DNA of 64,000 bases from an uncultured archaeon (GTDB lineage Archaea; CAYFZR01): contig CAYFZR010000065.1 in assembly GCA_964347835.1 (NCBI GenBank), positions 19,496-83,495 of the forward strand, read 5' to 3'. The position numbers and the translations under genes are program-made. Shown here in pieces: positions 2,852-61,778 of the stretch (position 1 is its first letter; each line of letters begins with the position of its first letter). The notes beneath the pieces are model-generated. The model searched no databases, was not told where the DNA came from, and worked only from the letters and a program-made list of their open reading frames with translations.

Positions 2852-3268
2852 TTAGAAGGGTCATGTCGTCAGAATTAACAATCGTTTTCTTATCAAAAAT
2901 AGTCATTCAAATGTCTTTTTTACCAACGAAGCCCAAACCATGATCTAAAATGAATTATCAGTAATTATTATAAAATCAAAAATCCTTATTTGGGTTCTAT
3001 TTCAAGAATTGGACTCTCTAGTTCATTTTCTGAATACAAAAAGGAAAATTTCATCTATATAGCTGATTATATCGGTAATTGTATTTAAACCGCAAAATAC
3101 TTATGTTTCGTGAAACTTAGTAAAAACACTTGGTGGGGGAGGACAGATAATATGTTTTTATTTTGAATCTGAATTAGCGTTGAAAACCTAGCATTAAACT
3201 TTTTTTAAATTTAACGCCAAGGAGGGGCGCTATGATAAAAATACTAATTAAAAGGGGAGGTGAAATAA

Positions 3269-3844
3269 ATGGAAATGTACAAAATGGGATTGATACTTTC
3301 ACTCCTGCTAATGATAGGATTAGTAGCAGGCTGTATTGGAGCAAAAGAGAAAGCGGCTGCACCCACGACACCAGCCATCCATGCTACAGGAAATATAGTC
3401 ACCATCATACCCTGCTCTGCCCCTGACGTGGATTGCATGTTCGAACAAAAATTCGGTGACGAGCTAATGAAGACCCGAAATCAATACAGTATATTTACGG
3501 GAACCATGGAGGGAACCGGGACCGGCGTGAATAGCCAATTAATAAACCTAAAGACGGGTAAAGCATTCAACTCGGCGTACGGTCACTTTGTCGGAACAGT
3601 GGGCGACTCAGAACCAGGCAGCTTCGCACGCTTCTGGACGTGGACCCTTGATATCCCAGCCTTACGTGGTGAAGAAGGTAATTACACGTGGGAAGGCTAC
3701 CATTGGGTTATCGAAGGCACCGGCATGGGTGGCCTGGAGGGTATCTGTGGAGGAGGAACCTTTGAGGGCTATGGTACGCCTGAGTTAGGCTTCACCACCA
3801 CCTATGACTTCGAGTTCCGCTTCGGCGAAGCTTGCAAAGAGTGA
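3269..3844 (+). CDS. Putative secreted lipoprotein, paralog 1 of a tandem pair
   Basis: 191 aa. Signal peptide with lipobox LVAGC. GGAGGTGA lies 7 nt upstream of the ATG. Confidence 0.6.
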   Translation: MEMYKMGLILSLLLMIGLVAGCIGAKEKAAAPTTPAIHATGNIVTIIPCSAPDVDCMFEQKFGDELMKTRNQYSIFTGTMEGTGTGVNSQLINLKTGKAFNSAYGHFVGTVGDSEPGSFARFWTWTLDIPALRGEEGNYTWEGYHWVIEGTGMGGLEGICGGGTFEGYGTPELGFTTTYDFEFRFGEACKE

Positions 3845-3845
3845 A

Positions 3846-3912
3846 GCTCGCCATAACCATGAGTAAAATAGGTAGCCTAACCACGAGTTAAGCTTCCCCC
3901 ATTTTTTTTGGT
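3846..3912 (+). terminator. Putative terminator (imperfect inverted repeat followed by CCCCC + T8)
   Basis: gaagctcgcc...gagttaagcttccccca tttttttt directly after the stop codon. Conserved in the second copy at 4730-4784. Confidence 0.35.
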
Positions 3913-4158
3913 TAAAATACTAAACAGGATCTTAGGTTGAACTAATATCGGTAACTTTCACAAAATCGAAAATTACTTATATTTCGGAAAATACAAAGTA
4001 ATCTACCTTAATTTAGCGCCGATGGAGGGGGGCAGATAACATGTTTTATTTTAAATCTGAATTAGCGTAGAAATTCTGCTATTAATTATTTTTTTTAATT
4101 TAGCGCCGAGTGTGGGGCGCGATGATAAAAATACTAATTAAAAGGGGAGGTGAAATAA

Positions 4159-4728
4159 ATGGAAATGTACAAAAAGGGATTTTTGCTACTGTTAATGATA
4201 GGATTAGTAGCAGGCTGCATTGGAGCAAAAGAGAAAGCGGCTGCACCCACGACACCAGCCATCCATGCTACAGGACAGATAGTCACCATCATACCCTGCC
4301 AAGCCCCTGACGTGGATTGCATGTTCACCCACAAATTCGACAACGAGATAGTAGACACCCGAACTGCATACAGTATATTTACGGGAACCATTGAGGGAAC
4401 CGCGACCACAGTGCAGAGCCACACGCTAAACCTAAAGACGGCTAAAGCAATCGCCTCGGGGTACGGTCACTTTATCGGAACAGTGGGCGACTCAGAACCA
4501 GGCAGCTTCGCACGCTTCCAATCGGCTACTTGTGATGTCCCACGCTTACGCGGGGAAAAAGGTAATGTCACGTGCGAAGGCTACCTTCGGGTTATCGAGG
4601 GCACAGGCTTGGGTGGCCTGGAGGGTATCTGTGGAGGAGGAACCGAGAAGACCACGGGTTCGCCTGAGTTAGGCTTCACCACCACCTATGACTACGAGTT
4701 CCGCTTCGGCGAAGCTTGCAAAGAGTGA
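4159..4728 (+). CDS. Putative secreted lipoprotein, paralog 2
   Basis: 189 aa with the same signal peptide, lipobox and leader as paralog 1. A central patch diverges (FWTWTLDIPALRGEEGNYTWEGYHW versus FQSATCDVPRLRGEKGNVTCEGYLR). Confidence 0.6.
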   Translation: MEMYKKGFLLLLMIGLVAGCIGAKEKAAAPTTPAIHATGQIVTIIPCQAPDVDCMFTHKFDNEIVDTRTAYSIFTGTIEGTATTVQSHTLNLKTAKAIASGYGHFIGTVGDSEPGSFARFQSATCDVPRLRGEKGNVTCEGYLRVIEGTGLGGLEGICGGGTEKTTGSPELGFTTTYDYEFRFGEACKE

Positions 4729-5705: not shown

Positions 5706-6179
5706 CTAAAATTTTAATTTGTCAGTTATAAGAATGTAGGTATAAGATATGATTAATAGGGAATAGTTCAGGGCGAGAAACCATGGTTCTCCCCACGAAA
5801 TTAATCCTTTTACTTCTAAACTTGAAATGGGATAAAAAGGTCTTGGGGGGGCTATACTCTGATGGGTGAGGAAATCTATTACTACATGCATGCCCCAACC
5901 TAATAATAGAGGATAAAAAAATCTACCAATAAAAAGAGAAGAAATAAAGAAGCAAAAAAACATTGTTAAAGGGCTATGGAAAAGATAATACAACTTGTAT
6001 ATCAGCGATGTTTCAGAAATAAATGCATGGTAAGGTGGAGATTTTCTGAAAGCAAAGTATATTAAAGCAGGGATTCCGAACAGAAGATCGGGTAAAATGG
6101 CGAAGAGTAATCCTAAATATTTCCATTCATACTTTCGGAATATTAAATATGCCCATAGACCGTGAGAAAAGAAGTCCAT
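5706..6179 (-). CDS. Membrane protein, possibly DUF457-type membrane-bound metal-dependent hydrolase
   Basis: 157 aa, hydrophobic, N-terminal MDFFSHGLWAY and C-terminal MHVVIDFLTHQ His-rich motifs reminiscent of the DUF457/YdjM family. Confidence 0.35.
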   Translation of the reverse strand: MDFFSHGLWAYLIFRKYEWKYLGLLFAILPDLLFGIPALIYFAFRKSPPYHAFISETSLIYKLYYLFHSPLTMFFCFFISSLFIGRFFYPLLLGWGMHVVIDFLTHQSIAPPRPFYPISSLEVKGLISWGEPWFLALNYSLLIISYTYILITDKLKF

Positions 6180-6287
6180 TCAGTTCACCTCTGTTTGTAT
6201 TTTTCTGATTAGGATTTACCTGTATAAGAGTGTTACCTCAAAATCTTCTACCCTTATTAATAGTTTCTTTATTTTTCACATCCTTCT

Positions 6288-6523
6288 AGAAGGTGGTAAT
6301 ATTATACTTTATACTGAAATTATCTTATTCTAACCTATCACCCCCTCTCTACACCCCCATATAAAATTTAGAGTAGAGAACAAATATAGAGAAGAAAACG
6401 ACTCATTCGGTACCGTTAATAAAATAATTTTAGGTTAGTTATTATCTTTCTTTTGATCGAACTTTTTTTAAAAGTTCATTGCGGATGGAACGAGCCACAT
6501 TCCATAGCTAGCCACGTTCCATT
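6288..6523 (+). repeat. Copy A of a modular intergenic repeat family (P module + S module + hairpin H module)
   Basis: Contains agaaggtggtaatattatactttatactgaaatta..tatcaccccctctctacacccccatataaa..tttagagtagagaacaaatatagagaagaaaacgactcattcggtaccgttaataaaataatt..gaactttttttaaaagttcattgcggatggaacgagccacattccatagc. Near-identical to 31095-31392 and 56781-57047. Confidence 0.8.
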
Positions 6524-6853
6524 TTAAATAATCAAGTAATTCTCTATTTTTTCAAATATTTCCTCTAATTCATTTAGATCTTCGTCTCCGTTTAGATGGA
6601 ACTCGATGGTAAGGTCGTTTGCTCTCTTATCGTAATGTTTTACGTCTGCTTTTCTTTTCATTTTGTTTTCAAAGAAAGATTTGAGCTTTAATGCTTCCTC
6701 ACAAAAAGGCGTTATGGCCATAAATATGCCTTCAGGAGACACTGTCATGAAAAGAGATAATTCCTTGTTGTTGTATTTAAGATCAATAGAATATTGCACC
6801 ATGTTGGGATAAGGTGATAGCCTCCTTATATCGATGATTTCGATTGTTTTCAT
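6524..6853 (-). CDS. Hypothetical protein
   Basis: 109 aa ORF. Its stop codon abuts the hairpin end of repeat copy A. Confidence 0.4.
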   Translation of the reverse strand: MKTIEIIDIRRLSPYPNMVQYSIDLKYNNKELSLFMTVSPEGIFMAITPFCEEALKLKSFFENKMKRKADVKHYDKRANDLTIEFHLNGDEDLNELEEIFEKIENYLII

Positions 6854-7104
6854 ATATCCTACACCGTTAGTTCATAAGTAAATATTTTACATATACATTT
6901 TTGACTTTTTATCAGCGAATTCGTTTCGTACAACGTTATTAAACTTTTTTTCAGTACTTTAAATACCACCGAAACTCTTATATTATTCAAAATAATATTT
7001 TTCAAGTAAATATTTAGACTTTAAAGCATAAAATTTGCTCAAAATTAAAAATAAACATATTTAATGATAAATCAAACTAAAATTAGATATATGGATGTTT
7101 GTAG

Positions 7105-8139
7105 ATGTCGACATCTCTTTATGCATATGTAAACGCTAGAATAAGGGCGATGAAATCTTACTTATTAAAAACAGCAGAAATGAAATCTTTATTAGAAGCC
7201 ACTTCCGTTGAAGATGCTTTATCCTTCCTAAAGGGCACCTATTACGAAAAATATTTGACAGATATTGAGGCCCCTTCTTTATTATTGATAGAAGAGGCTT
7301 TAGTCAATTCTTTCACTAACGATTATGATAGGCTCATAAGATATCTGCATAAGCAACCAAGAGAATTTCTATCTGAAATGGGGAAAAAATTTGAAATCGA
7401 TGCTATTAAGACTATTGTTAGAATTAAAGCCGCCGATATAAAAGAAAAGTATCCAATCATCCCCTTTGGAAAGATAGACCATGTTTTAGTAGAATCTCTC
7501 ATGGAGATAGAAATGCTCGAAGAGATGGAGGGCATACTAAAAGATTTGGAATACGCACCCATAATAAGAGACACTGTACCAAAATTTAGGGAGAAAGGAG
7601 ATGCATACCCCATTGAAACTGCTTTAGATTCTTATGTTTATAGCAAAATTACCAAATCAATGGAAAAATTATCGAATCAAGATAAAAAGATGGCCAAACA
7701 ATTTATCGGATTAGAAATAGATGGAAGAAATCTAATTAATGTTTTAAGATGTAGGGGTCTCGAGGAAGAGGAAATTTTTGATTATCTCATTCCTTACAGA
7801 TATCAACTATCAGATGTCTTGTTAAATGCGTGTTTTAGCGCAGAGAATATAGATATAATCCCATCAGAGCTTTCTTCCACGAAATACGCAGATATAGTAT
7901 CGAAGGCAGTATCTAAATTTAAAGAAACTGGGTCCCTACATCCTTTTGAACTGGGTTTTAAAGAACTCATATTAGGTCTGAGTAAGAGTGTATTTTCTGG
8001 ATACCCATTCCACATAGGCACAATTTTAGGCTATTTAAACTTAAAAGAGAATGAAATAAGGACTATATTGACAATACTTATCACTAAAGAAGTTAAACTG
8101 CCACCATCAGAAGTTGAGAATTTGATTTTACTAACATAA
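7105..8139 (+). CDS. A/V-type ATP synthase subunit C (AC39/d)-like protein, stand-alone
   Basis: 344 aa. N-terminus LYAYVNARIRAMKSYLL matches the conserved start of archaeal A1AO subunit C. No other ATP synthase genes are nearby. Confidence 0.5.
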   Translation: MSTSLYAYVNARIRAMKSYLLKTAEMKSLLEATSVEDALSFLKGTYYEKYLTDIEAPSLLLIEEALVNSFTNDYDRLIRYLHKQPREFLSEMGKKFEIDAIKTIVRIKAADIKEKYPIIPFGKIDHVLVESLMEIEMLEEMEGILKDLEYAPIIRDTVPKFREKGDAYPIETALDSYVYSKITKSMEKLSNQDKKMAKQFIGLEIDGRNLINVLRCRGLEEEEIFDYLIPYRYQLSDVLLNACFSAENIDIIPSELSSTKYADIVSKAVSKFKETGSLHPFELGFKELILGLSKSVFSGYPFHIGTILGYLNLKENEIRTILTILITKEVKLPPSEVENLILLT

Positions 8140-8152
8140 GTATAGGGATCCT

Positions 8153-9073
8153 ATGAAAGAAAAAAATATCCTTGTAACAGGAGGTTGCGGATTTATAGGT
8201 TCTCACATTGCTGAATACTTTTGCGAATCGAATTATGTTACTATTGTAGATAACCTCTCAGCAGGTAGTTTGGAGAACATAAAGAAATTTAAGGATAGAA
8301 TTGTTTTTTTTAAGTCTGACTTGAACGATTTACCTAAATTAAACTTAGAAGATATAGATATAGTGTTTCATACCGCGGCGAGCGTATCTATAGAAAAATC
8401 TATCGAGGATCCTTTATTCGATGCTCAGACAAACATATTGGGTATCTTAAATACATTAGAAATGTGCAGAAAAAAGAATATAGAGAGATTTGTTTTTTCT
8501 TCCTCATCATCTGTATACGGAGATCCAACATACCTTCCTGTAGACGAAAAACATCCCTTAAATCCTAAGTCTCCCTACGCGATAAGTAAAAAGACTGGAG
8601 AAGATTACTGTAAAATTTACAACGATTTGTATGGATTGAAAACTGTTTCTTTAAGATATTTCAATGTTTTTGGACCTAGACAGAGAGCAAGCGACCCTTA
8701 TTCCGGAGTAATACCTATATTCTTGAATAAAATTAGGGAGCAAAAAACGCTTCCCATATATGGAGATGGAAATCAAACCAGAGATTTCATTCATGTTAAA
8801 GACGTTGTAAGAGCGAACATACTTGCTAGCAAATCAAAAGAGGCCACAGGAAATAAAATAAACATCGGGACAGGAAAAGAAACAAGTGTAAACCAACTTG
8901 TAAAATTATTACGAGATATATCTGGAAAAGAGTTGTCTGTGGAATTTCATCCACCGAGAGAAGGTGACATAAGAAAGAGCGTCGCTGACGTTTCTTTAGC
9001 GAAAAAAGTTCTTAAATTTGATGTCCTTACAACGTTAAAAGAAGGGTTGACAGATTTGTGGAAAAAAATATAA
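8153..9073 (+). CDS. NAD-dependent nucleoside-diphosphate-sugar epimerase/dehydratase (UDP-glucose 4-epimerase-like)
   Basis: 306 aa. Rossmann motif TGGCGFIGSH, catalytic YAISKK (YxxxK) and an SDR-extended layout. Confidence 0.85.
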   Translation: MKEKNILVTGGCGFIGSHIAEYFCESNYVTIVDNLSAGSLENIKKFKDRIVFFKSDLNDLPKLNLEDIDIVFHTAASVSIEKSIEDPLFDAQTNILGILNTLEMCRKKNIERFVFSSSSSVYGDPTYLPVDEKHPLNPKSPYAISKKTGEDYCKIYNDLYGLKTVSLRYFNVFGPRQRASDPYSGVIPIFLNKIREQKTLPIYGDGNQTRDFIHVKDVVRANILASKSKEATGNKINIGTGKETSVNQLVKLLRDISGKELSVEFHPPREGDIRKSVADVSLAKKVLKFDVLTTLKEGLTDLWKKI

Positions 9074-9117
9074 AAGAATAAAAAATGATATATATTTGTT
9101 CAAACAGATTGTCAGAC

Positions 9118-9813
9118 ATGAAAAAAGCGATTATAATCTCATTGGTCCTTTTGGCTTGTATTGGTTCTGTAAATTCTGCAGAAATCGACTCTCTCTTCGT
9201 ATCAAACAATGTTGTTTACATCTTATCTGATGATACCTTAACTGCTTTAAGCGAAGATGGTATACTCCTCTGGAAAACTAGGGCTAAAAACATACTTACA
9301 AGAGCGAATGGAGTGTTGTATGTTGTTTCAGATGGTTATCTTAAAGCCTTAGATCAGTACTCTGGAGAGGAGATATGGAAACTAAATATAGTTCCCTCTT
9401 ACCTCAGATACTCCAACAACTTACTCTATGCATACAATGGAGAAAAACTCAAAGTTCTGGACAAGAGAGGTTTGAGTATGTGGGAGACGGATGCTAGTTC
9501 TGAACCATTATTTTCCTCCGGAATTATATACTTAAGATCTAATGGCGAAATTTTAGCCTTAAATCAATATACAGGGGAAATATACTGGAGTTTTAAGGAT
9601 ACGGGTTATCCTCTCTTCGTATCAAATAATGTTGTTTACATCTTATCTGATGATACTTTAACTGCTTTAAGCGAAGATGGTATACTCCTCTGGAAAACTA
9701 GGGCTAAAAACATACTTACAAGAGCGAATGGAGTTTTGTATGTTGTTTCAAATGGGTATCTTAAAGCCTTAGATCAATACTCTGGAGAGGAGATATGGGA
9801 AATTCTCGTTTAG
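9118..9813 (+). CDS. Secreted PQQ-like beta-propeller repeat protein with recent internal duplication
   Basis: The track ORF starts at 9085, but the signal peptide begins at the Met at 9118 (MKKAIIISLVLLACIGSVNSA). Repeats of the G.LYVVS.GYLKALDQYSGEEIW type. Confidence 0.6.
   Translation: MKKAIIISLVLLACIGSVNSAEIDSLFVSNNVVYILSDDTLTALSEDGILLWKTRAKNILTRANGVLYVVSDGYLKALDQYSGEEIWKLNIVPSYLRYSNNLLYAYNGEKLKVLDKRGLSMWETDASSEPLFSSGIIYLRSNGEILALNQYTGEIYWSFKDTGYPLFVSNNVVYILSDDTLTALSEDGILLWKTRAKNILTRANGVLYVVSNGYLKALDQYSGEEIWEILV
9189..9798 (+). repeat. Intragenic direct repeat: two near-identical segments of about 190 bp (9189-9378 and 9609-9798), period 420 bp
   Basis: ctctcttcgtatcaaa.aatgttgtttacatcttatctgatgata.cttaactgctttaagcgaagatggtatactcctctggaaaactagggctaaaaacatacttacaagagcgaatggagt.ttgtatgttgtttca.atgg.tatcttaaagccttagatca.tactctggagaggagatatgg occurs twice, differing at only a handful of positions. 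Confidence 0.85.
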
Positions 9814-16177: not shown

Positions 16178-16603
16178 ATGAAAATATCCCTGGTCAAGGA
16201 TATAATGATTGAAGAAGTTCTTTTCACAGACGTTTCTTCTTCCATTAACGAAGTCGCGAATCTCATGAGTACAAAAGACGTCGGAAGTCTCGTTGTTATA
16301 GAAGATGAAAAACCTATAGGCATTATAACCGAGAGAGACATATTGAAGAAGGTGGTAGCAAAAGGGTTGGATCCCGGGGAAACTAAAGTTTCAGAGATAA
16401 TGCATACTCCCCTTATAACCATAGATTCAGAATCCTCAATATTTCAAGCAGCAGAATTGATGAACATAAACAAGATAAGAAGGCTTCCTGTAGTCAAAGG
16501 TGAGAAAATAGTAGGTATAATAACCGTTTTCGATATAATGAGTCATTACAGAGAGGTTGCTGGTTGGATAATCGAGACATTAACTCCGATGTTTCAGCCT
16601 TAA
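16178..16603 (+). CDS. CBS-domain pair protein
   Basis: 141 aa with two CBS motifs (GSLVVIED.., RRLPVVKGEKIVGIITVFD). Confidence 0.8.
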   Translation: MKISLVKDIMIEEVLFTDVSSSINEVANLMSTKDVGSLVVIEDEKPIGIITERDILKKVVAKGLDPGETKVSEIMHTPLITIDSESSIFQAAELMNINKIRRLPVVKGEKIVGIITVFDIMSHYREVAGWIIETLTPMFQP

Positions 16604-16606
16604 CAC

Positions 16607-16903
16607 GACCTTCAAAAAGGTCGATCATTTGGTCGAATTCGCTAACGCGAATTCAACAACTCAAATAGCAATAAACGTGCGATCTTCAAAACGCTCAACA
16701 ATCGAGGATTCTCGTGAGAGGTCGATCATTCGATAACATCGCAACCTTTTATAAAGGTTGAACAAAGGCACCACCTCCACCTTTTATAAAGGTGGAGCAA
16801 TGCTACTCCTGTTTGAGATGTTGAATTGCGAAGCAATTCGACCTGATGATCCACCTTTCAGAAGGTGGAATTCGACCTGATGATCCACCTTTCAGAAGGT
16901 GGA
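16607..16903. repeat. Array of about eight short hairpins/palindromes, including a 34-bp tandem direct repeat, directly upstream of tRNA-Ile
   Basis: cgacc-ttcaaaaa-ggtcg, gaattcgc-taac-gcgaattc, caacc-ttttataaa-ggttg, ctccacc-ttttataaa-ggtggag, gaattgc-gaa-gcaattc, and attcgacctgatgatccacctttcagaaggtgga x2 (16836-16903). Confidence 0.75.
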
Positions 16904-16907
16904 GGTT

Positions 16908-16982
16908 GGGCTCGTGGCTCAGACTGGTTAGAGCGTCCGGCTGATAACCGGGAGGTCCGGGGTTCAAATCCCCGCGGGCCCA
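16908..16982 (+). tRNA. tRNA-Ile (anticodon GAU)
   Basis: Cloverleaf read by hand: acceptor GGGCTCG/CGGGCCC, anticodon stem TCCGG/CCGGG with loop CTGATAA, T-arm CGGGG-TTCAAAT-CCCCG, discriminator A. CCA not encoded. Confidence 0.8.
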
Positions 16983-17088
16983 TCTAAACTTTATATCTGC
17001 TATTTTTAATTCTGGATAGATAAAACATTCGATATGTATCAAAAATATGATAAAACTATTTCGACTATGAACTATGAAGTTGAGTTAA

Positions 17089-30543: not shown

Positions 30544-31092
30544 ATGAAGAGAAATGTTAACACGTATTTGATGGTAATAAACATCGTCTTAATATTTTCA
30601 CTGGTATCCATGGGTGTATACTCCGGCATTCAGTACAAGCGAGTCAACAAGTTGATAGATGAACTTAACTCGCAGTCAGAAAATCTAATAGTTAGGTTGC
30701 AAGGTAAAGAAGAACAGTTCAACCTTACTTTAAAGACACTAAATATCACCGAAAGTAAGATAGAAGCGCTTAAAGAAAAATACACCAAATTAGATACTGA
30801 GAAGACGAACCTTGAAAAAGTACTACAAAGTACAGTAAACGATTTGGAAAAAACAAAATCTGACTTGAGAGACTTAAGGCAAGACTACAACGAAAAACTT
30901 ATTGAGATTGAGACCTTGAATGCAAGAGTTACAGCCTACAAAAGAGAAAACACCAATCTAAAAGAGTCTTTAAGACAAGTAACACTCGACCTTTATGTGG
31001 CAACAGAGGAAATAGACAATCTGCACGACAAAATAGATGATCTAGAAGAAGATTTAGCGGCTTGTAGAGCAGCGAGTCCACCTCCTCCATGA
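30544..31092 (+). CDS. Membrane-anchored coiled-coil protein
   Basis: 182 aa. N-terminal TM helix, heptad-rich body, PPPP C-terminus. The stop codon directly abuts repeat copy B. Confidence 0.45.
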   Translation: MKRNVNTYLMVINIVLIFSLVSMGVYSGIQYKRVNKLIDELNSQSENLIVRLQGKEEQFNLTLKTLNITESKIEALKEKYTKLDTEKTNLEKVLQSTVNDLEKTKSDLRDLRQDYNEKLIEIETLNARVTAYKRENTNLKESLRQVTLDLYVATEEIDNLHDKIDDLEEDLAACRAASPPPP

Positions 31093-31094
31093 TT

Positions 31095-31392
31095 AGAAGG
31101 GGGTAATAATACATTTTATACTGAAATTACCTTATCCTAACTTATCACCCCCTTTCTAAACCCCTATATAAGAGGAGAAGAGAATAACATTAATTTCATA
31201 ACGTAATTATCCTATCTTACCTTATTAACCCCTTTATACACCTCCATATAAAGAAGGGGGTAAATCACCCCTTTCTAAACCCCCATATAATATTTAGAGT
31301 AGAGAACAAATGTAGAGTAGAAAAGGACTCATTTGGTACCGTTCATAAAATAATTATTTATAATATTGCGGGTGCAGCGAGCCACGCTGCAT
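31095..31392 (+). repeat. Copy B of the modular intergenic repeat family (three P sub-modules + S module + hairpin)
   Basis: agaagggggtaataatacattttatactgaaatta...caccccctttctaaacccctatataa...cccctttatacacctccatataaagaagggggtaaatcacccctttctaaacccccatataatatttagagtagagaacaaatgtagagtagaaaaggactcatttggtaccgttcataaaataatt...ggtgcagcgagccacgctgca. Confidence 0.8.
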
Positions 31393-31523
31393 AGTGTCAA
31401 TTTTTCCAACAAATTTGAAATATGTGCTATTGTCGAAAATGATTTAATAATTTTTCGAAAAATAAATCTGTCTATTTTCCCTCAAATTTGTAAACCAAAA
31501 CTCTATGGCTTAAAAGAGACATA

Positions 31524-31877
31524 ATGTACATTGGTGAGAGTATTAAGTCAGTTGGGGAAGAGAGCGGCCAGGGTGCCCTCGAATATTTTATTTTAACTGC
31601 CACTGGATTGGCAGTCATAGCGACGGGTACAGCGTTTATGAGAAAAGTTGCTATCGAAAGTAACTTAAAATCTGAGCGAGCGTATGGAAGAATAAATCAA
31701 TCAATCGAAGATATTTTAGACGAAATAGTCGAGGAATCTGAGATGCAAACCACCAATCAGGCACAAACATCGCCCTCTCCCCCACCGCAGAATACGCCAA
31801 CTCCCAACGAATCCACAGAACCACCTTACTCAAAAAATTCCAAATGCTGGGTATGTGGGCCCCAATCTCCATGTTAA
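31524..31877 (+). CDS. Class III (type IV pilin-like) signal peptide protein with Pro/Thr-rich linker and Cys-rich C-terminus
   Basis: 117 aa. N-terminal GQGALEYFILTATGLAVIATG fits the archaeal prepilin/DUF361-type signal. Followed by SPSPPPQNTPTPNESTEPP and CWVCGPQSPC. Confidence 0.45.
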   Translation: MYIGESIKSVGEESGQGALEYFILTATGLAVIATGTAFMRKVAIESNLKSERAYGRINQSIEDILDEIVEESEMQTTNQAQTSPSPPPQNTPTPNESTEPPYSKNSKCWVCGPQSPC

Positions 31878-31922
31878 TCTCGTTAATCCCGCTCTTTCTT
31901 AAGGCTTTAAAAAAAAGAGAGT

Positions 31923-32183
31923 TTAAGGAATTTTAATTGAAAAGAAAAAATTGTATGTGCGTCTACCGTTAACAGTACCTTTATATTTTGTGCTTTGATT
32001 GAATGGTACATTAAACATCCTTGAAATTTTTGCAGAGTCCTTCCTTGCCTTATTTATGTTTTTAGAGTAAAAATCATAACCATCTCTAGTTTTTATGAAT
32101 TCATATTCCTTTAAAATCTGGAAAACTTCACTTAACTTATCATTTTCTAAATTTCCTCTGATCTGTATTATCGCCGTATGCAT
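31923..32183 (-). CDS. Hypothetical small basic protein
   Basis: 86 aa ORF. Confidence 0.3.
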   Translation of the reverse strand: MHTAIIQIRGNLENDKLSEVFQILKEYEFIKTRDGYDFYSKNINKARKDSAKISRMFNVPFNQSTKYKGTVNGRRTYNFFFSIKIP

Positions 32184-32192
32184 TTCTAACGA

Positions 32193-32486
32193 TCAGCTTC
32201 CAAATATTTTTGCTGCTTCTCTACCTTTCATGCCTTCTTTTACACCAATATCTTGGGCTTTAGTTGTAACTGCCTTTATCTCAGCATTCATAACGTCCTC
32301 AAATGTATTGACACCCGAAACCATCGCACAGGAGACTCCAAGTTTTTCTGCGGCATCGATATTTAGGTAACCGCACATCACGAATCCATTTTTTCCTCTT
32401 AAGAGGATTAAGGGGGCCACAGGTAAGTCTATTTTGATGCCTAGAACTTTTGCTTCTTCTATCTCCAGTTCTTCTATTTGAATCAT
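32193..32486 (-). CDS. Small conserved protein downstream of ftr (possibly DUF1805/YunC-like)
   Basis: 97 aa (LRGKNGFVMCGYLNIDAAEKLGVSCAMVSGV). Lies 18 nt after ftr on the same strand. Confidence 0.35.
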   Translation of the reverse strand: MIQIEELEIEEAKVLGIKIDLPVAPLILLRGKNGFVMCGYLNIDAAEKLGVSCAMVSGVNTFEDVMNAEIKAVTTKAQDIGVKEGMKGREAAKIFGS

Positions 32487-32503
32487 TTTTCATTAAGATT
32501 AAA

Positions 32504-33394
32504 CTAGAATAACTCATGTAGATTTACTTTGTAGGGACCTAACTTTCCCCCATAGTTCCCCGCTGTGATCTTTACCACACCTGGTACCTTTACTGCAGCC
32601 TCAATTCCTTTCTTTGTAGCCTCTTTTACCGCATCTAGGTTAAGACCATTTATCACAAGTTCGTAAATGGCTTCCACATCTTTAGGTACGAAGGTATCGG
32701 CCACCTTTTCTTTTAGTGTTGGAGCATAGCGTTCGTTTGTACTGGCTTTTAAGAATTTGTACTTGGAACCAACTTTTGAACCTGAAGCGACGATTCCACC
32801 CGGAAACGGAGTTATCGTACCTTCCAGTTCCATAACAGTATCCACGGCATCTTCTGCTGCAGTTAAAGCGGCCATCTGGTTCTTTGCCAAAATAAAAAAG
32901 TTTCCACCTGCCACGCCATCGACAGCGCCAATTTTATCCTCAATTACAAAATCTCCTTCCATCATCGGTATGTAGAACACCTTTCTACCAGATATCTCTC
33001 TCTCACTCTCGAATCCGTCTCCGAAAAATTTGAGTTTTGCTCCAGTATCGAATTGTAACTCGGCATCAGGTAATCCGTTGAAGCAAGCTGCCGTAGGAGC
33101 GGTGAGAACACATTGTCCAATTCTGTTGAGTAATTGGGTTCCCAATCCTTTTTCGCTAAAATGGCAAATCTGAATGTACGCACCAGGTCTTCCATCCGGT
33201 GTTTCATCTCCTCCAACGACCTTCTCAATGCCTGCTTCTGCAGGGCATGCAATCACCGAAGTTCCAAAACCAGTAGCCTCTGTAGCCGCTACTAGGGCCC
33301 ATCTTTTTGTAGCACCAGTTATCAAAGGCCTTGCAATTTTTATTGGAAAGGCCTCAGCAAAGGTATCTTCTATTTCAACTCCATTTATTTTCAT
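32504..33394 (-). CDS. ftr: Formylmethanofuran--tetrahydromethanopterin N-formyltransferase
   Basis: 296 aa. Near-colinear with characterised Ftr (MKINGVEIEDTFAEAF...ATEATGFGTSVIACPAEAGIE...FPGGIVASGSKVGSKY...ITAGNYGGKLGPYKVNLHELF). Confidence 0.9.
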   Translation of the reverse strand: MKINGVEIEDTFAEAFPIKIARPLITGATKRWALVAATEATGFGTSVIACPAEAGIEKVVGGDETPDGRPGAYIQICHFSEKGLGTQLLNRIGQCVLTAPTAACFNGLPDAELQFDTGAKLKFFGDGFESEREISGRKVFYIPMMEGDFVIEDKIGAVDGVAGGNFFILAKNQMAALTAAEDAVDTVMELEGTITPFPGGIVASGSKVGSKYKFLKASTNERYAPTLKEKVADTFVPKDVEAIYELVINGLNLDAVKEATKKGIEAAVKVPGVVKITAGNYGGKLGPYKVNLHELF

Positions 33395-33558
33395 TGTCTC
33401 ACCAATTGAGGTTCGATCAGTTTAGAATATATAATTTTTGGAACAAAGAATCTTGTATATAATCAACTTATTTAAAAATAGGACAGTAGGATTATTATAG
33501 GATGGAGAGCATTTGTAGCCGATACCACCATATTCAAAAATATTCTTCGAGGGATAAA

Positions 33559-34122
33559 ATGGAATACCCTTCAATATTACTTATTACATACATCGAAACC
33601 CTTGCGAATATATCAGGACCTTCAGAAACAATTGATTGGCTGAAAGATCTAGGAATGACGCTCTTTGAAAAAGTTGAACCCCAAGATTTCAAGGACATGG
33701 AAGAGTTTAAAGAAAGTATATCAAAAGGAAAGATGTTTCTGCCGTATTTCACCAACATACCCGAAATTGAGGATAATCTAATTCTTTTTAAGTCATGTCC
33801 ATTTTATGAGGCTCTTTGGAATTACATCGAGCATTATGGGAGGTTTCCGCCTTCTTTTGAAGAGGTAATTGAATACTATAGGGAAAAAGAAGATATCGCG
33901 GTGAGTCCTTTTTGTATTATTCACCGTTTTGTTTGCGAAAGAATCGGTAAGAAAATAAAAATAGGCGGAAAAAATCTTTTTATTACAAGGCTTGGATCTA
34001 AATCAATATTTGGAGAGATTATTATTTCTAAAAATAAAATAAAAGAAAAAAAATTAAATGAAGAAGACATTTTAGAATTATTGAAAGATTTCTCATGTAT
34101 ATATTACTTGGAGACTAAATGA
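33559..34122 (+). CDS. Hypothetical protein
   Basis: Track ORF 33502-34122; the likely start is the Met at 33559 (MEYPSILL). Confidence 0.4.
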   Translation: MEYPSILLITYIETLANISGPSETIDWLKDLGMTLFEKVEPQDFKDMEEFKESISKGKMFLPYFTNIPEIEDNLILFKSCPFYEALWNYIEHYGRFPPSFEEVIEYYREKEDIAVSPFCIIHRFVCERIGKKIKIGGKNLFITRLGSKSIFGEIIISKNKIKEKKLNEEDILELLKDFSCIYYLETK

Positions 34123-34300
34123 TACCTTATTTTCTTGATATTAAAATAGCGAGAATTTCACTATATAAAAAATTATAAATGTGAAAAATCACTTAGCATT
34201 AATATAATATATAGTGACTATACACATATTTGGAGAATAGTGATCATATTTGTTTAGATAAAAGATTTTAGCAATTAAGAAAAGAGAGGAACTGAGGCTT

Positions 34301-35191
34301 ATGATTAAACTGCCATACGGAAACAAAGTTTGTGAAGCAGAAAATGTCAAAAAAATTGTAGATTTATATCCTATTTTTAAAAAATATGAAATTGGTTATT
34401 TATTGGTTTCTAGGAATTCCGGAGATAAAAATTGGTTAATTTATATTTTTTTCTTGGATAAAAAATTTTTAGGTCTTTTTGCGCATACTGATTGTTGGGA
34501 TAAGATTCTACTTGGTGATCTTGCTTTGGATCAAACCAAGGCGCTACTCTGTATATCGGACAAACTAGAAGTATATTCAGTTGATAGAGAAGAAATAATC
34601 GAGTGCAAGAACATGATTCCCAATATAGTAGTAGGAGAGTTAACGGTTCCAAGAGATATAGATTATGAAAGAACAGAATTAGATCAAAAAGAATTGGGAG
34701 AAGAGATAAAATCGGTAATTAAATGGAAGAATGAGCTTTCAGAAAAGTTGGAAAGAGTCCACAGCAGGCTCAGAGTAGAAAACTCTAGAGAATATTTCGA
34801 GGAGGCTGGGTTAGAAATTCCAGATGAGATCGAGGGCGAAAAATACATGGATCTTTGGAAATCTTATTTTAAAATGAATTCACGTAAAAAATTTGACATT
34901 GATCTGGCAGAAAAAATTGGTAAATATCTTGAAAAAAGATTTGCTTTGAGTAAGATGTGGATAGAAGTAAACTCTGAGTACGATGAAGAATTGGTTGTAA
35001 ACATAGATGCAAAACTGCTTCCATTGGAGAATGAAAGAATCGAAACCCTGATTCCTAGATCCTCTAAAATGTCAGTAAAGAGGGAAAATCAAGACGAAAT
35101 CAAGAATGTCATAAAATGCGCTATAGACCGTGTTAGAGAGCGTTTAGATTTGTCTCTGACTCCTGTAATCAAGGTCCAAGTAAGGTCATAG
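34301..35191 (+). CDS. Hypothetical protein
   Basis: 296 aa acidic ORF. Confidence 0.4.
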   Translation: MIKLPYGNKVCEAENVKKIVDLYPIFKKYEIGYLLVSRNSGDKNWLIYIFFLDKKFLGLFAHTDCWDKILLGDLALDQTKALLCISDKLEVYSVDREEIIECKNMIPNIVVGELTVPRDIDYERTELDQKELGEEIKSVIKWKNELSEKLERVHSRLRVENSREYFEEAGLEIPDEIEGEKYMDLWKSYFKMNSRKKFDIDLAEKIGKYLEKRFALSKMWIEVNSEYDEELVVNIDAKLLPLENERIETLIPRSSKMSVKRENQDEIKNVIKCAIDRVRERLDLSLTPVIKVQVRS

Positions 35192-35269
35192 TGATTCTAC
35201 GATCATAAATTTTCTTTTTAGGGAAAGATTTTTATAAATCAATTTATGTTCTATTCGTTTGCAATATCT

Positions 35270-35344
35270 GCCCCGTTAGTGTAGTCCGGCCAATCATTCG
35301 GGCCTTTCGAGCCCGTGACGCGGGTTCAAATCCCGCACGGGGCA
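35270..35344 (+). tRNA. tRNA-Glu (anticodon UUC)
   Basis: Acceptor GCCCCGT/ACGGGGC, anticodon stem CGGGC/GCCCG with loop CTTTCGA, T-arm GCGGG-TTCAAAT-CCCGC, discriminator A. Closely resembles archaeal tRNA-Glu. CCA not encoded. Confidence 0.8.
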
Positions 35345-35394
35345 CTTTCCATAAATTTGTAACCCAAATAACCTTTTTTTATTTCAAACGTTTT

Positions 35395-56183: not shown

Positions 56184-56314
56184 AAGAAATTTGAAGGTTT
56201 CGTCATCACGTCGATTGCTCTTTTATATTCTTTCATTTTTTAAAAAATTTTATAGATTATTTTTCTTTTCAAAATCAAAAAATAAATACGCAATAATTAT
56301 AGAGTGATATGTGA

Positions 56315-56611
56315 TTGTTAATGAGATTCAGCAAGCAGATGTTAAAAATCTTATTGGTTCTGAGGAAACATCCCGAAGGATTGACTGAAGAGAAGATAAT
56401 TGCAAGGGGGGAAAGATTAGATAAAACGGAAAATGTGCAACTTAGAGCTTTTAAGTCCAGATACAAAAAATCTATCGAAAAATTGGTTTCTCGAGGTCTA
56501 ATAATCAGAAAAAAGAAAAAGTTCAAACTTACGGGAGAAGGTATTGACAGAGCTCAAGAGGCTTACAGCGAAATTAAGGAGTATTTCAAAGAATATCAAC
56601 ATTTGATTTGA
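56315..56611 (+). CDS. Small basic winged-helix-like protein
   Basis: 98 aa (LKILLVLRKHPEGLTEEKIIARGERL). Confidence 0.35.
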   Translation: MLMRFSKQMLKILLVLRKHPEGLTEEKIIARGERLDKTENVQLRAFKSRYKKSIEKLVSRGLIIRKKKKFKLTGEGIDRAQEAYSEIKEYFKEYQHLI

Positions 56612-56780
56612 CAAAGGCGAAAATTTAGAAAAATCATATATTTCGGTTATTGCCGATCGTTGATCGTAAAAAATAAAAATAAATTGTTGATAATTAATTT
56701 TAGAGGGCTTGTGCCCTCTGCCCCCCCCATTTTTCAAGATTTTTCATTGTTTATCAATTAGGTGCAGTTTTTTGATTAAG

Positions 56781-57047
56781 CTTTTTTTAAAAGTTCAAAT
56801 GTAACGAGCCACGCTAGAAGGGGGTAATAATACATTTTATACTGAAATTATGCTATTTTACCTCATCACCCCCTTTCTAAACCCCCATATAAAGAAGGGG
56901 GCAATCGCCCCCTCTCTACACCCCCATATAATATTTAGAGTAGAAAAAGGCTCATTTGGTACCGTTTATAAAATATCTTTCTTTTGATTGAACTTTTTTT
57001 AAAAGTTCATTGCGGATGGAACGAGCCACGTTCCATAGCCACGCTGC
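56781..57047 (+). repeat. Copy C of the modular intergenic repeat family (half-H module + 2 P sub-modules + S module + full H module)
   Basis: ctttttttaaaagttcaaatgtaacgagccacgct-agaagggggtaataatacattttatactgaaatta...caccccctttctaaacccccatataaagaagggggcaatcgccccctctctacacccccatataatatttagagtagaaaaaggctcatttggtaccgtttataaaat...gaactttttttaaaagttcattgcggatggaacgagccacgttccatagccacgctgca. Confidence 0.8.
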
Positions 57048-57050
57048 ATT

Positions 57051-59045
57051 TTATTCATTTTCATTCGTTCTCAAGAGTTCTTTCGCTCTTCTCTCTTTGT
57101 ATTCATAGATGATATCCTCGATTGTGTCTAAATGTTCCATATCTTTTTGTTTTTTATCTTCCAATAGCCAATTCTCAATTTCTTTCTTGAAGAGTTCTGA
57201 ATCTATAACTGCAAAATCGTCAACATGTCTGAGTTTTACCTTATCAGGATCTATTATAGGAATATTCTCTTGTTTAAATACCTCTTCTGCTACGTGTGAC
57301 ATCCCTTTTTTCGCTATGATACATTTTGCGCCTTTCGCCAATGATTTTGCTGTGGAGGCTCCACCTCCACTCACATCCATAATGTATATAACATCGTTAG
57401 AGAGTCCAACTTGGTCTTTTAATTGTTTTATACAGTCTTTAGAGAATGTGTTCAGTATTTTAACTGGTTTTATCTTTTTTGAGGGTTCTAAAGAGTGAAT
57501 TCTTTTTAATCTTTGAAGTTCTTTTGCATATCTTGAGGATCTCTCCTTTTCCTTAATTATTTCTGTTTTTAAATCTTCAATCATTTTTTCTTTTGCTCTA
57601 AGAAGAGTATCTTTTCGTATCTCTATATCTTCCTCTTTTACGATTCTTTCGAGTTTTATTTGTAACTCATTTTTCTCAGAAATTATTTTCTCCTTTTCTT
57701 CTATTAAAAATACGTTTTCTTCCTCTAATCTATCAATTCTCTTTTCTAATTTCTTAATTTTGTTTATAAAATCTTTCAAATCATCTTTTTCTGGGTGCTT
57801 CTCCACTACTTTCTTTGTTTTCTCTTTTTTCTCGGTTACCATATTGACAGCATCTCTCAGCGTGTAGCCTTTTATCGTTAGTTCCTTTATTTTATTAACG
57901 TCCCCCTTGAAACCAATATCTTCTAGTTTACTACTTATCTGTAAAAATTTATTTTTATAAGAATTAAATGCCTTGATGGCAGCTGCTAAAGAGTCTCTCT
58001 GATGGGAATCGTTGGGAGGATGTATTTTCTCTTCCATTATGTAAGCGTTGACAATTTCCCTCTTATCCTGTACGCTTAGTTGATCGTGAGAAATCAACTT
58101 AGCATTAAATATTGCTGATATCTTTTCAATCTGTTTTGGAGGAGGGTGGATATCTGTTGTTACTATCACAGGAGTGCCGAATTTTCCTACAAAATTTATT
58201 ATGTCGCTTCTTGACATATTTTTCATACTTTTGATGGATAAAAGGCGACCATTGAGATCAAGTATTGATAAACCCGTTGTCGTTCCAGGATCTATTCCCA
58301 CAATCAAAGGAGAAGATTGTTTTCTCTTTTCAAATGTTTTCATTCTTGTTGGTTTTACTGTAACCCTGACGTCAGGACCTTTTACTTCTCTTAAAAACTT
58401 CTTAATCTTAGGGTAGGTTGCATAAGCAGTAAATTCGCTTCTAGAATATCCTTGATCTTTGGTTTTAATATTTAAGTCATAGTCAATACTTTTTTCATCT
58501 AAGTTTCGTTTAACCTCTCTTGTAACCTGCTGGATCAGATTGTGAATCTTTCTTCTGTATCTTGCTTGGCTAAATCCCCCCGGTCCAATGCTTCTTGCTC
58601 TACTCACAATGATTTTGGTAGCGTCTTCAATTTGTGCTATTTCTGTTCCTATACCCTTATCTGCGAGTAATGCACATACACAGGCTTCTTCTAATGAAGA
58701 AGCCCTCTCTCCGAGATGGATTCCATATTTTTTAGCGATTTTATGCAGGGGAATTTGTTTCCCAAATGTGCCAGTTACTTGGACGATTCTGGTTTCTGGA
58801 GATAAATTATCCAAAAAACGTTTCAGGCGCCTCCTGTTAGGTACTAATTCATATACGTTATCCGTGGCGAGTATATTCGGCTTTTCTTTGTAAATTAGCC
58901 TTAAAAGTTTGTGATAGCTGACTCTTTCAAAAGAAAAAACGACGCTACCATCTTTTACTCCAACGGCAGAGAAGTATGGTTGTCTTTTTCCTCTAATTGA
59001 GCCGTATACAACATCGACTCCTACTGTGCGCAAATATACCACCAA
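57051..59045 (-). CDS. Archaeal COG2433/DUF460-type protein: RNase H-fold (RuvC/YqgF-like) domain plus long coiled coil
   Basis: 664 aa. IVGIDPGTTTGLSILDLNGRLL (RNase H-like first strand), central Lys/Glu-rich coiled coil, conserved N-terminal domain. Confidence 0.55.
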   Translation of the reverse strand: MVVYLRTVGVDVVYGSIRGKRQPYFSAVGVKDGSVVFSFERVSYHKLLRLIYKEKPNILATDNVYELVPNRRRLKRFLDNLSPETRIVQVTGTFGKQIPLHKIAKKYGIHLGERASSLEEACVCALLADKGIGTEIAQIEDATKIIVSRARSIGPGGFSQARYRRKIHNLIQQVTREVKRNLDEKSIDYDLNIKTKDQGYSRSEFTAYATYPKIKKFLREVKGPDVRVTVKPTRMKTFEKRKQSSPLIVGIDPGTTTGLSILDLNGRLLSIKSMKNMSRSDIINFVGKFGTPVIVTTDIHPPPKQIEKISAIFNAKLISHDQLSVQDKREIVNAYIMEEKIHPPNDSHQRDSLAAAIKAFNSYKNKFLQISSKLEDIGFKGDVNKIKELTIKGYTLRDAVNMVTEKKEKTKKVVEKHPEKDDLKDFINKIKKLEKRIDRLEEENVFLIEEKEKIISEKNELQIKLERIVKEEDIEIRKDTLLRAKEKMIEDLKTEIIKEKERSSRYAKELQRLKRIHSLEPSKKIKPVKILNTFSKDCIKQLKDQVGLSNDVIYIMDVSGGGASTAKSLAKGAKCIIAKKGMSHVAEEVFKQENIPIIDPDKVKLRHVDDFAVIDSELFKKEIENWLLEDKKQKDMEHLDTIEDIIYEYKERRAKELLRTNENE

Positions 59046-59367
59046 TCAGTATGAGTGTATATGGAAAAACTTTCGTTAAAATACGAAAGATTGTTAAATT
59101 TAACATTTCTAATGAAGATATCAAAACTGAAAGAATAACACAAATGTCTCTGCCTCCTTTTCCACGGTGGCCAATTTTTTCCCACTCTGATAATGGTTTT
59201 CTTCTTATTTAATGTTGTCCCGCCACCGACGAAGAAATGGAAAGAAGACTTAAAGAAGAGAAAGAAAGAGGATTAGAGGATAATTAACTCTCTTCAAAAT
59301 CTCTTTTTTTCTGTGTGGTTTAGGTTGTTAACCCGACTGTATAGAGCTAATTCAATAACTGTATATT

Positions 59368-61124
<1,757 letters not shown>

Positions 61125-61239
61125 TCATAAACCTCCCTTCTTTGAAAATCGAAAAATAATAAGTGGCTTTTAATCTAAAATATATATAATTTTTTCGTGT
61201 AATTCTACTAAGACTCGAATCTCTCAAAAAAGAGTATTT

Positions 61240-61297
61240 TTTATTTCAGTATAAAATTATTCTTAATAAATTAGCGTGTGCAGCGAGCCACGCTGCT
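61240..61297. repeat. Partial copy D of the repeat family: inverted P-module fragment plus CGAGCCACG hairpin
   Basis: tttcagtataaaat is the reverse complement of attttatactgaaa. gtgcagcgagccacgctgc is identical to the copy B hairpin. Lies directly after the stop of the 61302-61778 gene. Confidence 0.6.
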
Positions 61298-61301
61298 TAA
61301 C

Positions 61302-61778
61302 TTATCTTCTCTTTCTTGCTTTAACGTGGATAGACCAGCCGAATAAATTTGGAAACCAGTTATAGTAAAATCTGTCATAATCCTTTACATATGTAGGATC
61401 GAACCCAACAAGTCTTAATACTTTCATTAAATCCTTTGGGTGTACTAATTTCGTGTGATAAGGGTTCCAACCGCTTTCCCATTGAATTTTACCTAAAAGA
61501 TATAATATTTTTCGTCTAACGGTGAACATATTCGGCGTTGTGAATTCCAAGATTCCGTCGGATTTTAATATTCTAAAGCATTCTCTGAAGAAATCAATGG
61601 GATGTATCGTAAGATGTTCTAACAATTCAAATGCTAGGATATATTCACAAGAATTATCCTCGAAGGGATAAGGAGTAACGTTTAGATCTAATATTCTATC
61701 CGGCTCAAAATCCGGGTTTATATCTATGTTTATAAACCCTTCTCTCTTTTTCAATCCGCAACCCAGATTTAATTTCAT
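61302..61778 (-). CDS. Class I SAM-dependent methyltransferase
   Basis: 158 aa. Motif I LNLGCGLKKREGFINIDI. Confidence 0.7.
   Translation of the reverse strand: MKLNLGCGLKKREGFINIDINPDFEPDRILDLNVTPYPFEDNSCEYILAFELLEHLTIHPIDFFRECFRILKSDGILEFTTPNMFTVRRKILYLLGKIQWESGWNPYHTKLVHPKDLMKVLRLVGFDPTYVKDYDRFYYNWFPNLFGWSIHVKARKRR

Follow-up and report, generated by a model that had tools for sequence, protein, structure and literature searches.

We describe here a family of small non-coding repeat elements found between genes in a 64-kb stretch of chromosomal DNA from an uncultured archaeon (64,000 nucleotides, nt, of contig CAYFZR010000065.1; hereafter the window, whose coordinates are used throughout). 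The elements carry a short hairpin with a constant loop and a constant 5' flank, and with a stem that occurs in several sequence versions, all of them complementary. The hairpin is one module of the elements and was never free-standing. The elements occur in multiple copies and are, or at least were in the past, mobile; as far as sampled, the family is confined to one Hydrothermarchaeota lineage. By analogy, it is most like the palindrome-bearing mobile repeats known in other microbes, the repetitive extragenic palindromes (REPs) and palindrome-associated transposable elements (PATEs). Our favoured interpretation, held tentatively and at slightly less than even confidence, is that the hairpin is the near-terminal palindrome of a candidate mobile repeat of this kind, recognised by a protein encoded in trans.

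The hairpin unit consists of a TTGCGGR flank, a 7-bp stem (T-G-N-A-N-C-G) and a 5-nt loop, AGCCA, and is captured by the pattern TTGCGGR-TGNANCG-AGCCA-CGNTNCA. The preliminary description of this DNA, which had drawn attention to the hairpins, gave them a fixed loop or core. The loop is indeed constant, but the CG on either side of the proposed core forms the two innermost stem pairs, and the core itself reads CGAGCCACA in copy A. The window contains four hairpins, one degenerate copy and two relics of the 3' half, all on the plus strand. Unit A (6479-6504) has the flank TTGCGGA (6479-6485) followed by TGGAACG AGCCA CATTCCA (6486-6504), with a single C.A mismatch that is a G.U pair if read on the minus strand. 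Unit B (31366-31391) joins TTGCGGG to TGCAGCG AGCCA CGCTGCA (31373-31391), with 7/7 pairs, and unit C (57010-57035) joins TTGCGGA to TGGAACG AGCCA CGTTCCA (57017-57035), also with 7/7 pairs, or eight if a flanking A-T is included. The flank before units is TTGCGG(A/G), with the exception of unit D (61272-61297), where TAGCGTG (61272-61278) precedes TGCAGCG AGCCA CGCTGCT (61279-61297; 6/7 pairs). All positions agree within 2 nt with those first reported (D is at 61279-61297, not 61277-61295), and the extra copy reported at the left end of C is present at 56800-56818, degenerate and with 5/7 pairs. The conserved TTGCGGR flank had been overlooked, and so had a second, 5'-truncated hairpin that directly follows the first at A and C and lacks the 5' flank and 5' arm. 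The relic at A (6505-6521) is TAGCT + AGCCA + CGTTCCA, or T(AGCT)AGCCACGTTCCA. The relic at C (57036-57048; TAGCCACGCTGCA) is T + AGCCA + CGCTGCA, the 3' half of the stem type of B and D; a fuller form of it, TAGCG AGCCA CGCTGCA, is kept in two metagenome loci (L117 and L118, see below).

These hairpins are not a product of chance, as the counts against expectation show. Exact CGAGCCACG occurs four times in the window with 0.04 occurrences expected from shuffles, and the flank-plus-core pattern GCGNNTGNNNCGAGCCAC four times with none expected. The window has about 95 AGCCA pentamers, and only those of the four hairpins are flanked by 6-7 complementary pairs; the next best, the C-left copy among them, have five. 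A covariance model (R1, built from the 14 units introduced below) recovered exactly the four window hairpins at E < 1e-7 and nothing else below E = 1, with no false positives in ~210 kb. Three further ideas about the hairpin were discarded. An outer helix, TGCGG/CTGCA, in the plus-strand fold is unsupported, since its 5' side is invariant and the tail varies without compensation. An origin recognition box (TGGAAC/GTTCCA) was dropped because this sequence is lost in the other two stem types, and a short peptide translated through the hairpin was dropped because the downstream sequence is different at every locus.

To follow the hairpin beyond the window we used its nearest relative, the metagenome-assembled genome (MAG) GCA_046760505.1 (Candidatus Hydrothermarchaeota archaeon, isolate b3.sp1_bin.60; hereafter the sister species), which shows 77-81% DNA identity to the window over syntenic blocks. 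Its orthologous regions (L119-L124 and L154-L157) were obtained via protein-anchored look-ups. One more locus, L093, came from a scan of a genome collection with GCGNNTGNNNCGAGCCACGNNNCNTA; among the 107 matches listed it was the one true copy, the other listed matches representing a conserved coding motif (...GCGATTGGNACGAGCCACGGNGCNTAYAA..., which we take to be that of class II fructose-bisphosphate aldolase) in many unrelated, mostly GC-richer bacteria. A metagenome scan added six loci (L113-L118) from two whole-genome shotgun metagenome assemblies; these are non-syntenic with the window and resemble it in the repeat element alone. Together, these sources provided 14 distinct units for the analysis of covariation, four from the window and ten from the sister species and metagenome contigs.

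Across the 14 units the stem occurs in three types, GAA/TTC, CAG/CTG and CAA/TTG, the last of them absent from the window. The preliminary description, which knew two versions, had allowed that they might be no more than two subfamilies; the third, likewise complementary, version speaks against this. Overall, 91.8% of stem cells are paired, as compared with only 24-49% in slid registers. Two of the seven pairs vary on both sides: pair 3 is C-G in seven units and G-C in six, and pair 5 is A-U in eleven and G-C in three. The covariation score was reached by none of 500 shuffles. The outermost T-A pair is broken in 5/14 copies, and the six inner pairs show three mismatches in total over the 14 units; one unit (L113a) has an A.C mismatch, and a hybrid unit (L116b) sets TGCAACG opposite CGTTCCA, with a C.C mismatch. 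Both one-sided stem changes are G.U when read on the minus strand, where pairing rises to 93.9%. The loop is identical in 14/14 units and in all relics, and the inner CG pairs do not vary. In unrelated viral contigs, inspected as an external control, the flank and core (TTGCGGNTGNNNCGAGCCAC) occurred 29 times, never with a complementary stem (0/29); three viral-contig scans returned chance matches with non-complementary stems or nothing.

At two loci the window can be compared directly with orthologous copies in the sister species, and paired stem differences were seen at both. At locus B, L093 aligned to window positions 31366-35348 with 77.6% identity and has its hairpin at the same position; the CAG/CTG stem of the window corresponds to CAA/TTG in the sister species (TGCAACG/CGTTGCA), and apart from this the 26-nt unit differs only at the last flank base. 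At locus A, L123 aligned to positions 6510-9082 with 81% identity. Here the sister species has two complete CAA/TTG units with a Y fragment (a module described below) between them, the second unit overlapping the TAG stop of a conserved 109-amino-acid (aa) gene. The window has one GAA/TTC unit and the relic, which has lost its 5' flank and 5' arm in comparison with L123, and both hairpin arms as well as the 3' arm of the relic are of the window-specific type. The three sister-species hairpins have one stem type in common. This shared type, and the joint switch of hairpin and relic at A, favour copying of whole units over pair-by-pair compensatory substitution; the uniformity of stem type points to concerted evolution, via gene conversion or re-insertion of whole units. 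At A and B, neither the loop nor the inner CG pairs nor TTGCGG differ between the species, with flanking intergenic DNA 79-84% identical, and both copies have remained intact and in place since the species split, over ~20% DNA divergence. The earlier account is partly borne out: pairing is kept as the stem sequence changes, but the copies belong to one repeat family and are not independent, units are copied whole, and L116b carries a mismatch.

Repeat finding, together with an alignment of elements A, B and C, revealed a modular architecture: one or more X modules, a Y module, an optional palindrome P and one or two hairpin units. Module X is present in 1-3 copies, in a long form of 78 nt (TAGAAGGGGGTAAT...ATCACCCCCTTTCTAAACCCCCATATAA) or a short form of 40 nt, and we noted TTATATGG motifs in every copy. 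Module Y reads TAGAGTAGA...CTCATTTGGTACCGTT-ATAAAATA, and P is a perfect, AT-rich palindrome, (C)GAACTTTTTTTAAAAGTTC(G). Element A (6287-6523), delimited by direct-repeat families D2, D6, D8, D9 and D10 and by the alignment, has X at 6287-6364, Y at ~6365-6450 and P at 6459-6477, followed by the hairpin unit and relic; it lies between the minus-strand genes 5706-6179 and 6524-6853. Element B (31094-31391) begins 1 nt past the stop codon of a plus-strand gene (30544-31092) and has X at 31094-31171 and 31174-31251, short X at 31252-31291, Y at 31292-31365 and the terminal hairpin. Element C (56767-57048) starts with a left palindrome, P' (56770-56797), and the C-left hairpin (56800-56818), and continues with X (56815-56892), short X (56893-56931), Y (56932-56975), P (56989-57009) and the right-end hairpin unit with its relic. 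Element D (61251-61297) is a decayed Y remnant (repeat family D7, 84% to B) with a hairpin unit. All four elements are on the plus strand and contain no open reading frames (ORFs). Their density looks modest, about one copy per 16 kb, with copies 4-25 kb apart among housekeeping genes. The hairpin thus belongs to a repeat element, and the contrast with neutral repeat DNA drawn in the preliminary description was overstated.

An inverted-repeat search found no terminal inverted repeats in A, B or C (left end TAGAAGGGGG..., right end ...GCTGCA). Instead, palindromes lie close to the ends: on the left AAGGGGGTAATAA/TTATCACCCCCTT, 3 nt from the end, with a loop of 32-36 nt and unrelated to the right-end hairpin, and on the right the 7-bp hairpin, 0-17 nt from the element end. 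Only copy C has the hairpin unit, in degenerate form, at its left end too. The trinucleotide GAT precedes the left end in 5/8 copies. We also considered that the element might have split a target hairpin on insertion, and rejected this because the 5' half is missing from the left flanks, C being a partial exception. Tandem, 5'-truncated and hybrid (L116b) units indicate recombination at the conserved core. On the reverse strand of L116 (~381-600), upstream of a small gene, we observed an X-X-Y element that has no hairpin unit; hence at least some copies of the repeat can do without the hairpin module. Contigs in several assemblies start or stop inside or at an element (L093, L114, L117, L123 and L157), and L124 ends at the repeat too, as expected of a multicopy repeat.

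A sign of mobility comes from locus C. The orthologous spacer between DUF460 and thiS in the sister MAG (L120) is an empty site, in which ~310 nt of the window are replaced by ~22 nt; the missing stretch, which includes the whole element, is bounded on one side by a conserved GC-rich hairpin and on the other by the end of the DUF460 gene. The element was therefore gained or lost after the species split. It sits in the last codons of the DUF460 gene, whose stop codon is 2 nt from the element end, and the protein terminates in ...NENE* in the window and in ...NENSSKL* in the sister species; what seems to be a relic of the old C-terminal codons remains to the left of element C. This is the sole comparison of a filled with an empty site, and it shows no clean direct repeat, its boundaries being blurred by the ~20% divergence. 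Two other features of this spacer were noted. The GC-rich hairpin (56702-56745; AGAGGGCTTGTGCCCTCT), followed by a C-run and TTTTT, is present between DUF460 and thiS in the sister species as GAGGGCTCATGCCCTC with a changed loop, and may belong to the spacer itself as a native structured element, with no relation to the repeat family. Immediately to the left of element C, ~430 nt (56210-56636) have no counterpart in the sister thiS-DUF460 spacer; they contain a small winged-helix ORF (56315-56611, 98 aa) with a weak HTH_45 match.

All copies are intergenic, and their hairpin ends are close to the ends of genes. In 8/9 independent loci the hairpin or relic end lies between 2 nt overlapping and 19 nt beyond a stop codon on the opposite strand (gaps of 2, 2, 4, -2, 5, 0, 19 and 0 nt, median 2, the overlap being at L113), and several left ends adjoin a stop codon too. 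The relics of A and C end 2 nt before the stop codons of the 109-aa gene (6524-6526) and the DUF460 gene (57051-57053), respectively, and hairpin D ends 4 nt before that of a methyltransferase gene (61302-61304). The genes adjoining hairpin ends are unrelated to each other, with housekeeping or unknown functions. The proximity is in part trivial, reflecting the filling of spacers between convergent genes: at L113 and L116 the element fills the entire spacer and adjoins both stops. As for the strand bias raised earlier, the window copies do share the plus strand, but a strict rule of orientation relative to genes was not established, convergent pairs being uninformative and tandem pairs divided 3:1, with the hairpin end towards the stop of the upstream gene in A, D and L118 and towards the start of the downstream gene in B. 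At L118 (775-975, gene-sense strand) a canonical TTTATATA was observed in the X end, 26 nt ahead of the ATG of a radical-SAM gene, and the element may supply the promoter of that gene.

Searches against known families gave no assignment. At gathering score, Rfam passes only two tRNAs in the window and has no match for the hairpin or the element; permissive Rfam scans of elements B and C reached at best 22 bits, with thresholds of 33-83. No match was found in phage and plasmid collections (blastn), and in the searchable literature the hairpin core turned up in unrelated primers only. The repeat family, its occurrence in this host lineage and the three-type hairpin are undescribed, as far as could be checked; the kind of object is well known.

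Two groups of mobile repeats offer the closest parallels. IS200/IS605 is the most widespread insertion sequence (IS) family in archaea (PMC13343696). The PATEs of Haloquadratum lack inverted terminal repeats and target duplications and have palindromes near their termini; repeats mediate deletion between palindromes, and small repeats are inserted into palindromes (PMC3119063). The Hydrothermarchaeota element shares with Haloquadratum walsbyi PATEs and IS200/IS605 ends the palindromes near the termini, the heterogeneous sequence beyond the palindrome, deletions between directly repeated palindromes, other small repeats next to or in palindromes, insertion polymorphism between relatives and the lack of terminal inverted repeats (PMC3119063). 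It differs in that no IS605-type transposon with matching ends is known for it, in that its left and right palindromes are different except in copy C, and in being pieced together, as a mosaic, from modules that are reused (X in 1-3 copies, Y, P, one or two hairpins). IS200/IS605 ends usually bear similar hairpins at both ends. The second parallel is with REP systems, in which a Y1 transposase gene (RAYT) is flanked by REPs that number hundreds of copies per genome; to our knowledge, REP/RAYT systems have been described in bacteria only. Like REPs and the composite bacterial interspersed mosaic elements (BIMEs) that they form, the unit is a short, GC-rich palindrome outside genes that has a conserved 5' flank, is found in composite clusters and at gene 3' ends and is retained at orthologous positions, and its stem types differ between lineages, which would be expected if they co-evolved with a cognate protein; a dual DNA and RNA role would also be plausible (PMC2817692). 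Unlike them, it has the flank TTGCGG(A/G) (TAGCGTG in D) and not GTAG, its units are in direct and not alternating orientation, its density looks modest, and no RAYT is seen in the sequence examined, that is, the 64-kb window and ~110 kb of related loci. Membership of PATEs or REPs proper cannot be claimed, since the flank is not of the GTAG type and this sequence provides no cognate transposase for either assignment. The invariant loop on a covarying stem also recalls sites that are nicked or recognised as a folded single strand, as at the origins of HUH rolling-circle replicons, but here the loop is of 5 nt, no Rep gene or replicon context is present, and the copies are chromosomal and dispersed.

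If the hairpin is such a palindrome, the protein acting in trans would recognise the folded form through the sequence of its loop and 5' flank and the shape of its stem. The invariance of loop and flank, combined with a stem conserved in shape only, suggests a sequence-specific protein that binds the folded strand; the likeliest candidate would be a single-strand-DNA transposase of the HUH/Y1 type, as for IS200/IS605 ends, transposase-less PATE derivatives and REP/RAYT. Because only pairing would matter in the stem, a switch of unit type would be tolerated, and whole units may change type by gene conversion or recombination between copies with function retained. The elements fill short spacers at gene ends, which places hairpins directly after stop codons, where they may secondarily act as RNA 3'-end structures, and the gene that follows may be served by TATA-like motifs of the X end. 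A palindrome-bearing mobile repeat is the best fit to our data because it accounts for near-terminal palindromes without terminal inverted repeats, for tandem, truncated and hybrid units and for insertion polymorphism. Several observations weigh against it. No transposase of any kind was detected with Pfam among 42 window ORFs and 8 related-locus ORFs, and the left end lacks the same hairpin except in C. No clean conserved target sequence was found beyond the GAT of 5/8 copies, and the single filled/empty comparison leaves the boundaries inexact. The persistence of the A and B copies is easier to reconcile with a host-level function or with ongoing conversion than with a dead transposon end, and the minus-strand G.U pattern is a weak hint of selection at the RNA level. 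DNA-level and RNA-level explanations are, to judge from REP elements, not mutually exclusive. More speculatively, and in our view improbably, the family might be an archaeal counterpart of REP/RAYT or a hairpin-guided mobile "punctuation cassette" that inserts at gene ends and brings along a stop codon, a post-stop hairpin and, as in L118, TATA boxes for the following gene; the last codons of a gene would then be replaceable, as at DUF460, and the hairpin would be used both by the mobilising enzyme as DNA and by the host as RNA.

An alternative that we consider unlikely, though with a real chance of being correct, is that the hairpin acts in cis as RNA, in the 3' untranslated region of the converging minus-strand gene, and that the repeat element merely spreads it. 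On the minus strand, UGNNNCG-UGGCU-CGNNNCA-UCCGCAA would directly follow the stop codon and serve in protection of the mRNA 3' end, termination or processing, with a protein reading UGGCU. This would agree with the opposite-strand stop codons near hairpin or relic ends, with the C-terminus of the 109-aa gene, where YLII* is kept and a hairpin adjoins the stop in both species, with the G.U character of both single-sided stem changes, with orthologous copies intact over ~20% divergence, and with folds that are stable as RNA (-11.5 to -15.9 kcal/mol for the unit, -12.9 for hairpin B, and -22.5 kcal/mol, z = -3.5, for the composite right end of C). However, no minus-strand gene ends at the hairpin of locus B, which is conserved in both species and shows a compensatory change; spacer-filling elements in a compact genome adjoin stops automatically, as both ends do at L113 and L116; and the orientation among tandem gene pairs is only three to one. 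Archaeal termination relies on oligo-U tracts, and the minus strand after the hairpin has U4 runs only. Moreover, a hairpin for stability needs neither an invariant loop nor an invariant flank, and Rfam has no match. Transcription from the other strand, with the hairpin as a small RNA gene or its 3' end, appears very unlikely. Such a gene would have a TATA-like box at the end of Y (TTTATAAT / TTTGATAAAA), the hairpin as body and a T-run as terminator. GC-rich hairpins in AT-rich intergenic DNA, here of 36% GC, are typical of structural RNAs in thermophiles, the four window copies share a single orientation, and a T4-T7 run follows the unit in A, C, L113a, L114 and L116a and lies within 10 nt of it in B and L093. 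No such run follows it in D, the L116 tail or L118, though, and the T7 run in palindrome P, upstream of the hairpin (A, C, L118 type), would stop plus-strand transcription early; the lack of an Rfam match and the G.U pattern, which favours the opposite strand, also argue against it.

The pairing might also be kept by mechanism alone in a palindromic repeat without function, which we regard as improbable. Units would be copied by gene conversion and unequal recombination, and template switching within the quasi-palindrome would copy a mutation of one arm into the other, generating apparent compensation without selection. This would suit the single stem type of all three sister-species hairpins, the occurrence of hybrid and truncated units and locus A, where both arms and the 3' arm of the relic differ alike from the sister species although the relic has no 5' arm to pair with. 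It does not explain the constancy of the loop (14/14 units and relics), inner CG and TTGCGG next to flanking intergenic DNA diverged by 16-21%, the mere three mismatches in six inner pairs of 14 units, or a loop and flank frozen in every stem type, for which conversion alone is insufficient. Finally, a conserved core within a variable paired stem, directly after gene 3' ends, would be compatible with a site for a site-specific recombinase acting on folded DNA, as in integron attC or Xer/dif-like sites, and exchange within the core would yield the hybrid units. We give this very little credence: the copies are 4-25 kb apart among housekeeping genes and form no cassette arrays, the window has no integrase or recombinase gene, and the unit, always embedded in a larger repeat, has a perfect 7-bp stem without bulges and not the attC architecture of two box pairs and extrahelical bases.

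These results give an uncultured phylum of archaea a defined and structured repeat that is easy to search for. The repeat accounts for the breaks of short-read assemblies of these genomes at certain intergenic sites, and it marks recent rearrangements between sister species. Three stem types on one loop provide a test case for an archaeal system that may be REP/RAYT-like or IS200/IS605-derived and partly domesticated at gene ends. Should the hairpin act as RNA, it would be a conserved post-stop-codon hairpin of archaeal mRNAs with a sequence-specific loop.

The window as a whole is chromosomal DNA of ~36% GC, with typical archaeal chromosomal genes and two tRNAs. Its gene products include V-type ATPase subunit C, Ftr, Mer, DUF460, ThiS/TtuA-like proteins, a MoxR ATPase and a CLC channel. 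A 4.2-kb block (59085-63264), containing Mer, a hexapeptide acyltransferase, hairpin D, a methyltransferase and a glycosyltransferase, has no counterpart at the orthologous site of the sister MAG. There, DUF460 directly follows a 237-aa gene, and Mer lies beside two radical-SAM genes (one with a CofH_C match) and a CofC-family gene; Mer, a core gene of the C1 pathway, is thus relocated between the two genomes. No element was found in the Mer locus of the sister species (13.7 kb).

Other repeats were observed in the window. The region 3156-4728 holds a tandem gene pair (3269-3844 and 4159-4728) whose upstream regions are duplicated too (repeats of 300, 92 and 51 nt with identities of 86, 87 and 80%, respectively); no clear Pfam family emerged for the proteins. 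A gene for a PQQ-like beta-propeller (9085-9813) has an internal direct repeat of 191 nt (9191-9381 and 9611-9801, 96% identical). Upstream of tRNA-Ile (16907-16984), positions 16600-16905 contain a series of short palindromes, several with a TTTATAAA loop (CAACCTTTTATAAAGGTTG, CTCCACCTTTTATAAAGGTGGAG), followed by a perfect 34-nt tandem duplication (16835-16868 and 16869-16902; AATTCGACCTGATGATCCACCTTTCAGAAGGTGG); these look like stacked TATA-box palindromes or promoter duplications. Outside the window, three independent sister-species Logan contigs (L154, L155 and L156) have their 3' ends inside one and the same tRNA-like sequence (...GGTTCAAATCCCGGCCAGGGCGC), which suggests another repeat or an integration hotspot.

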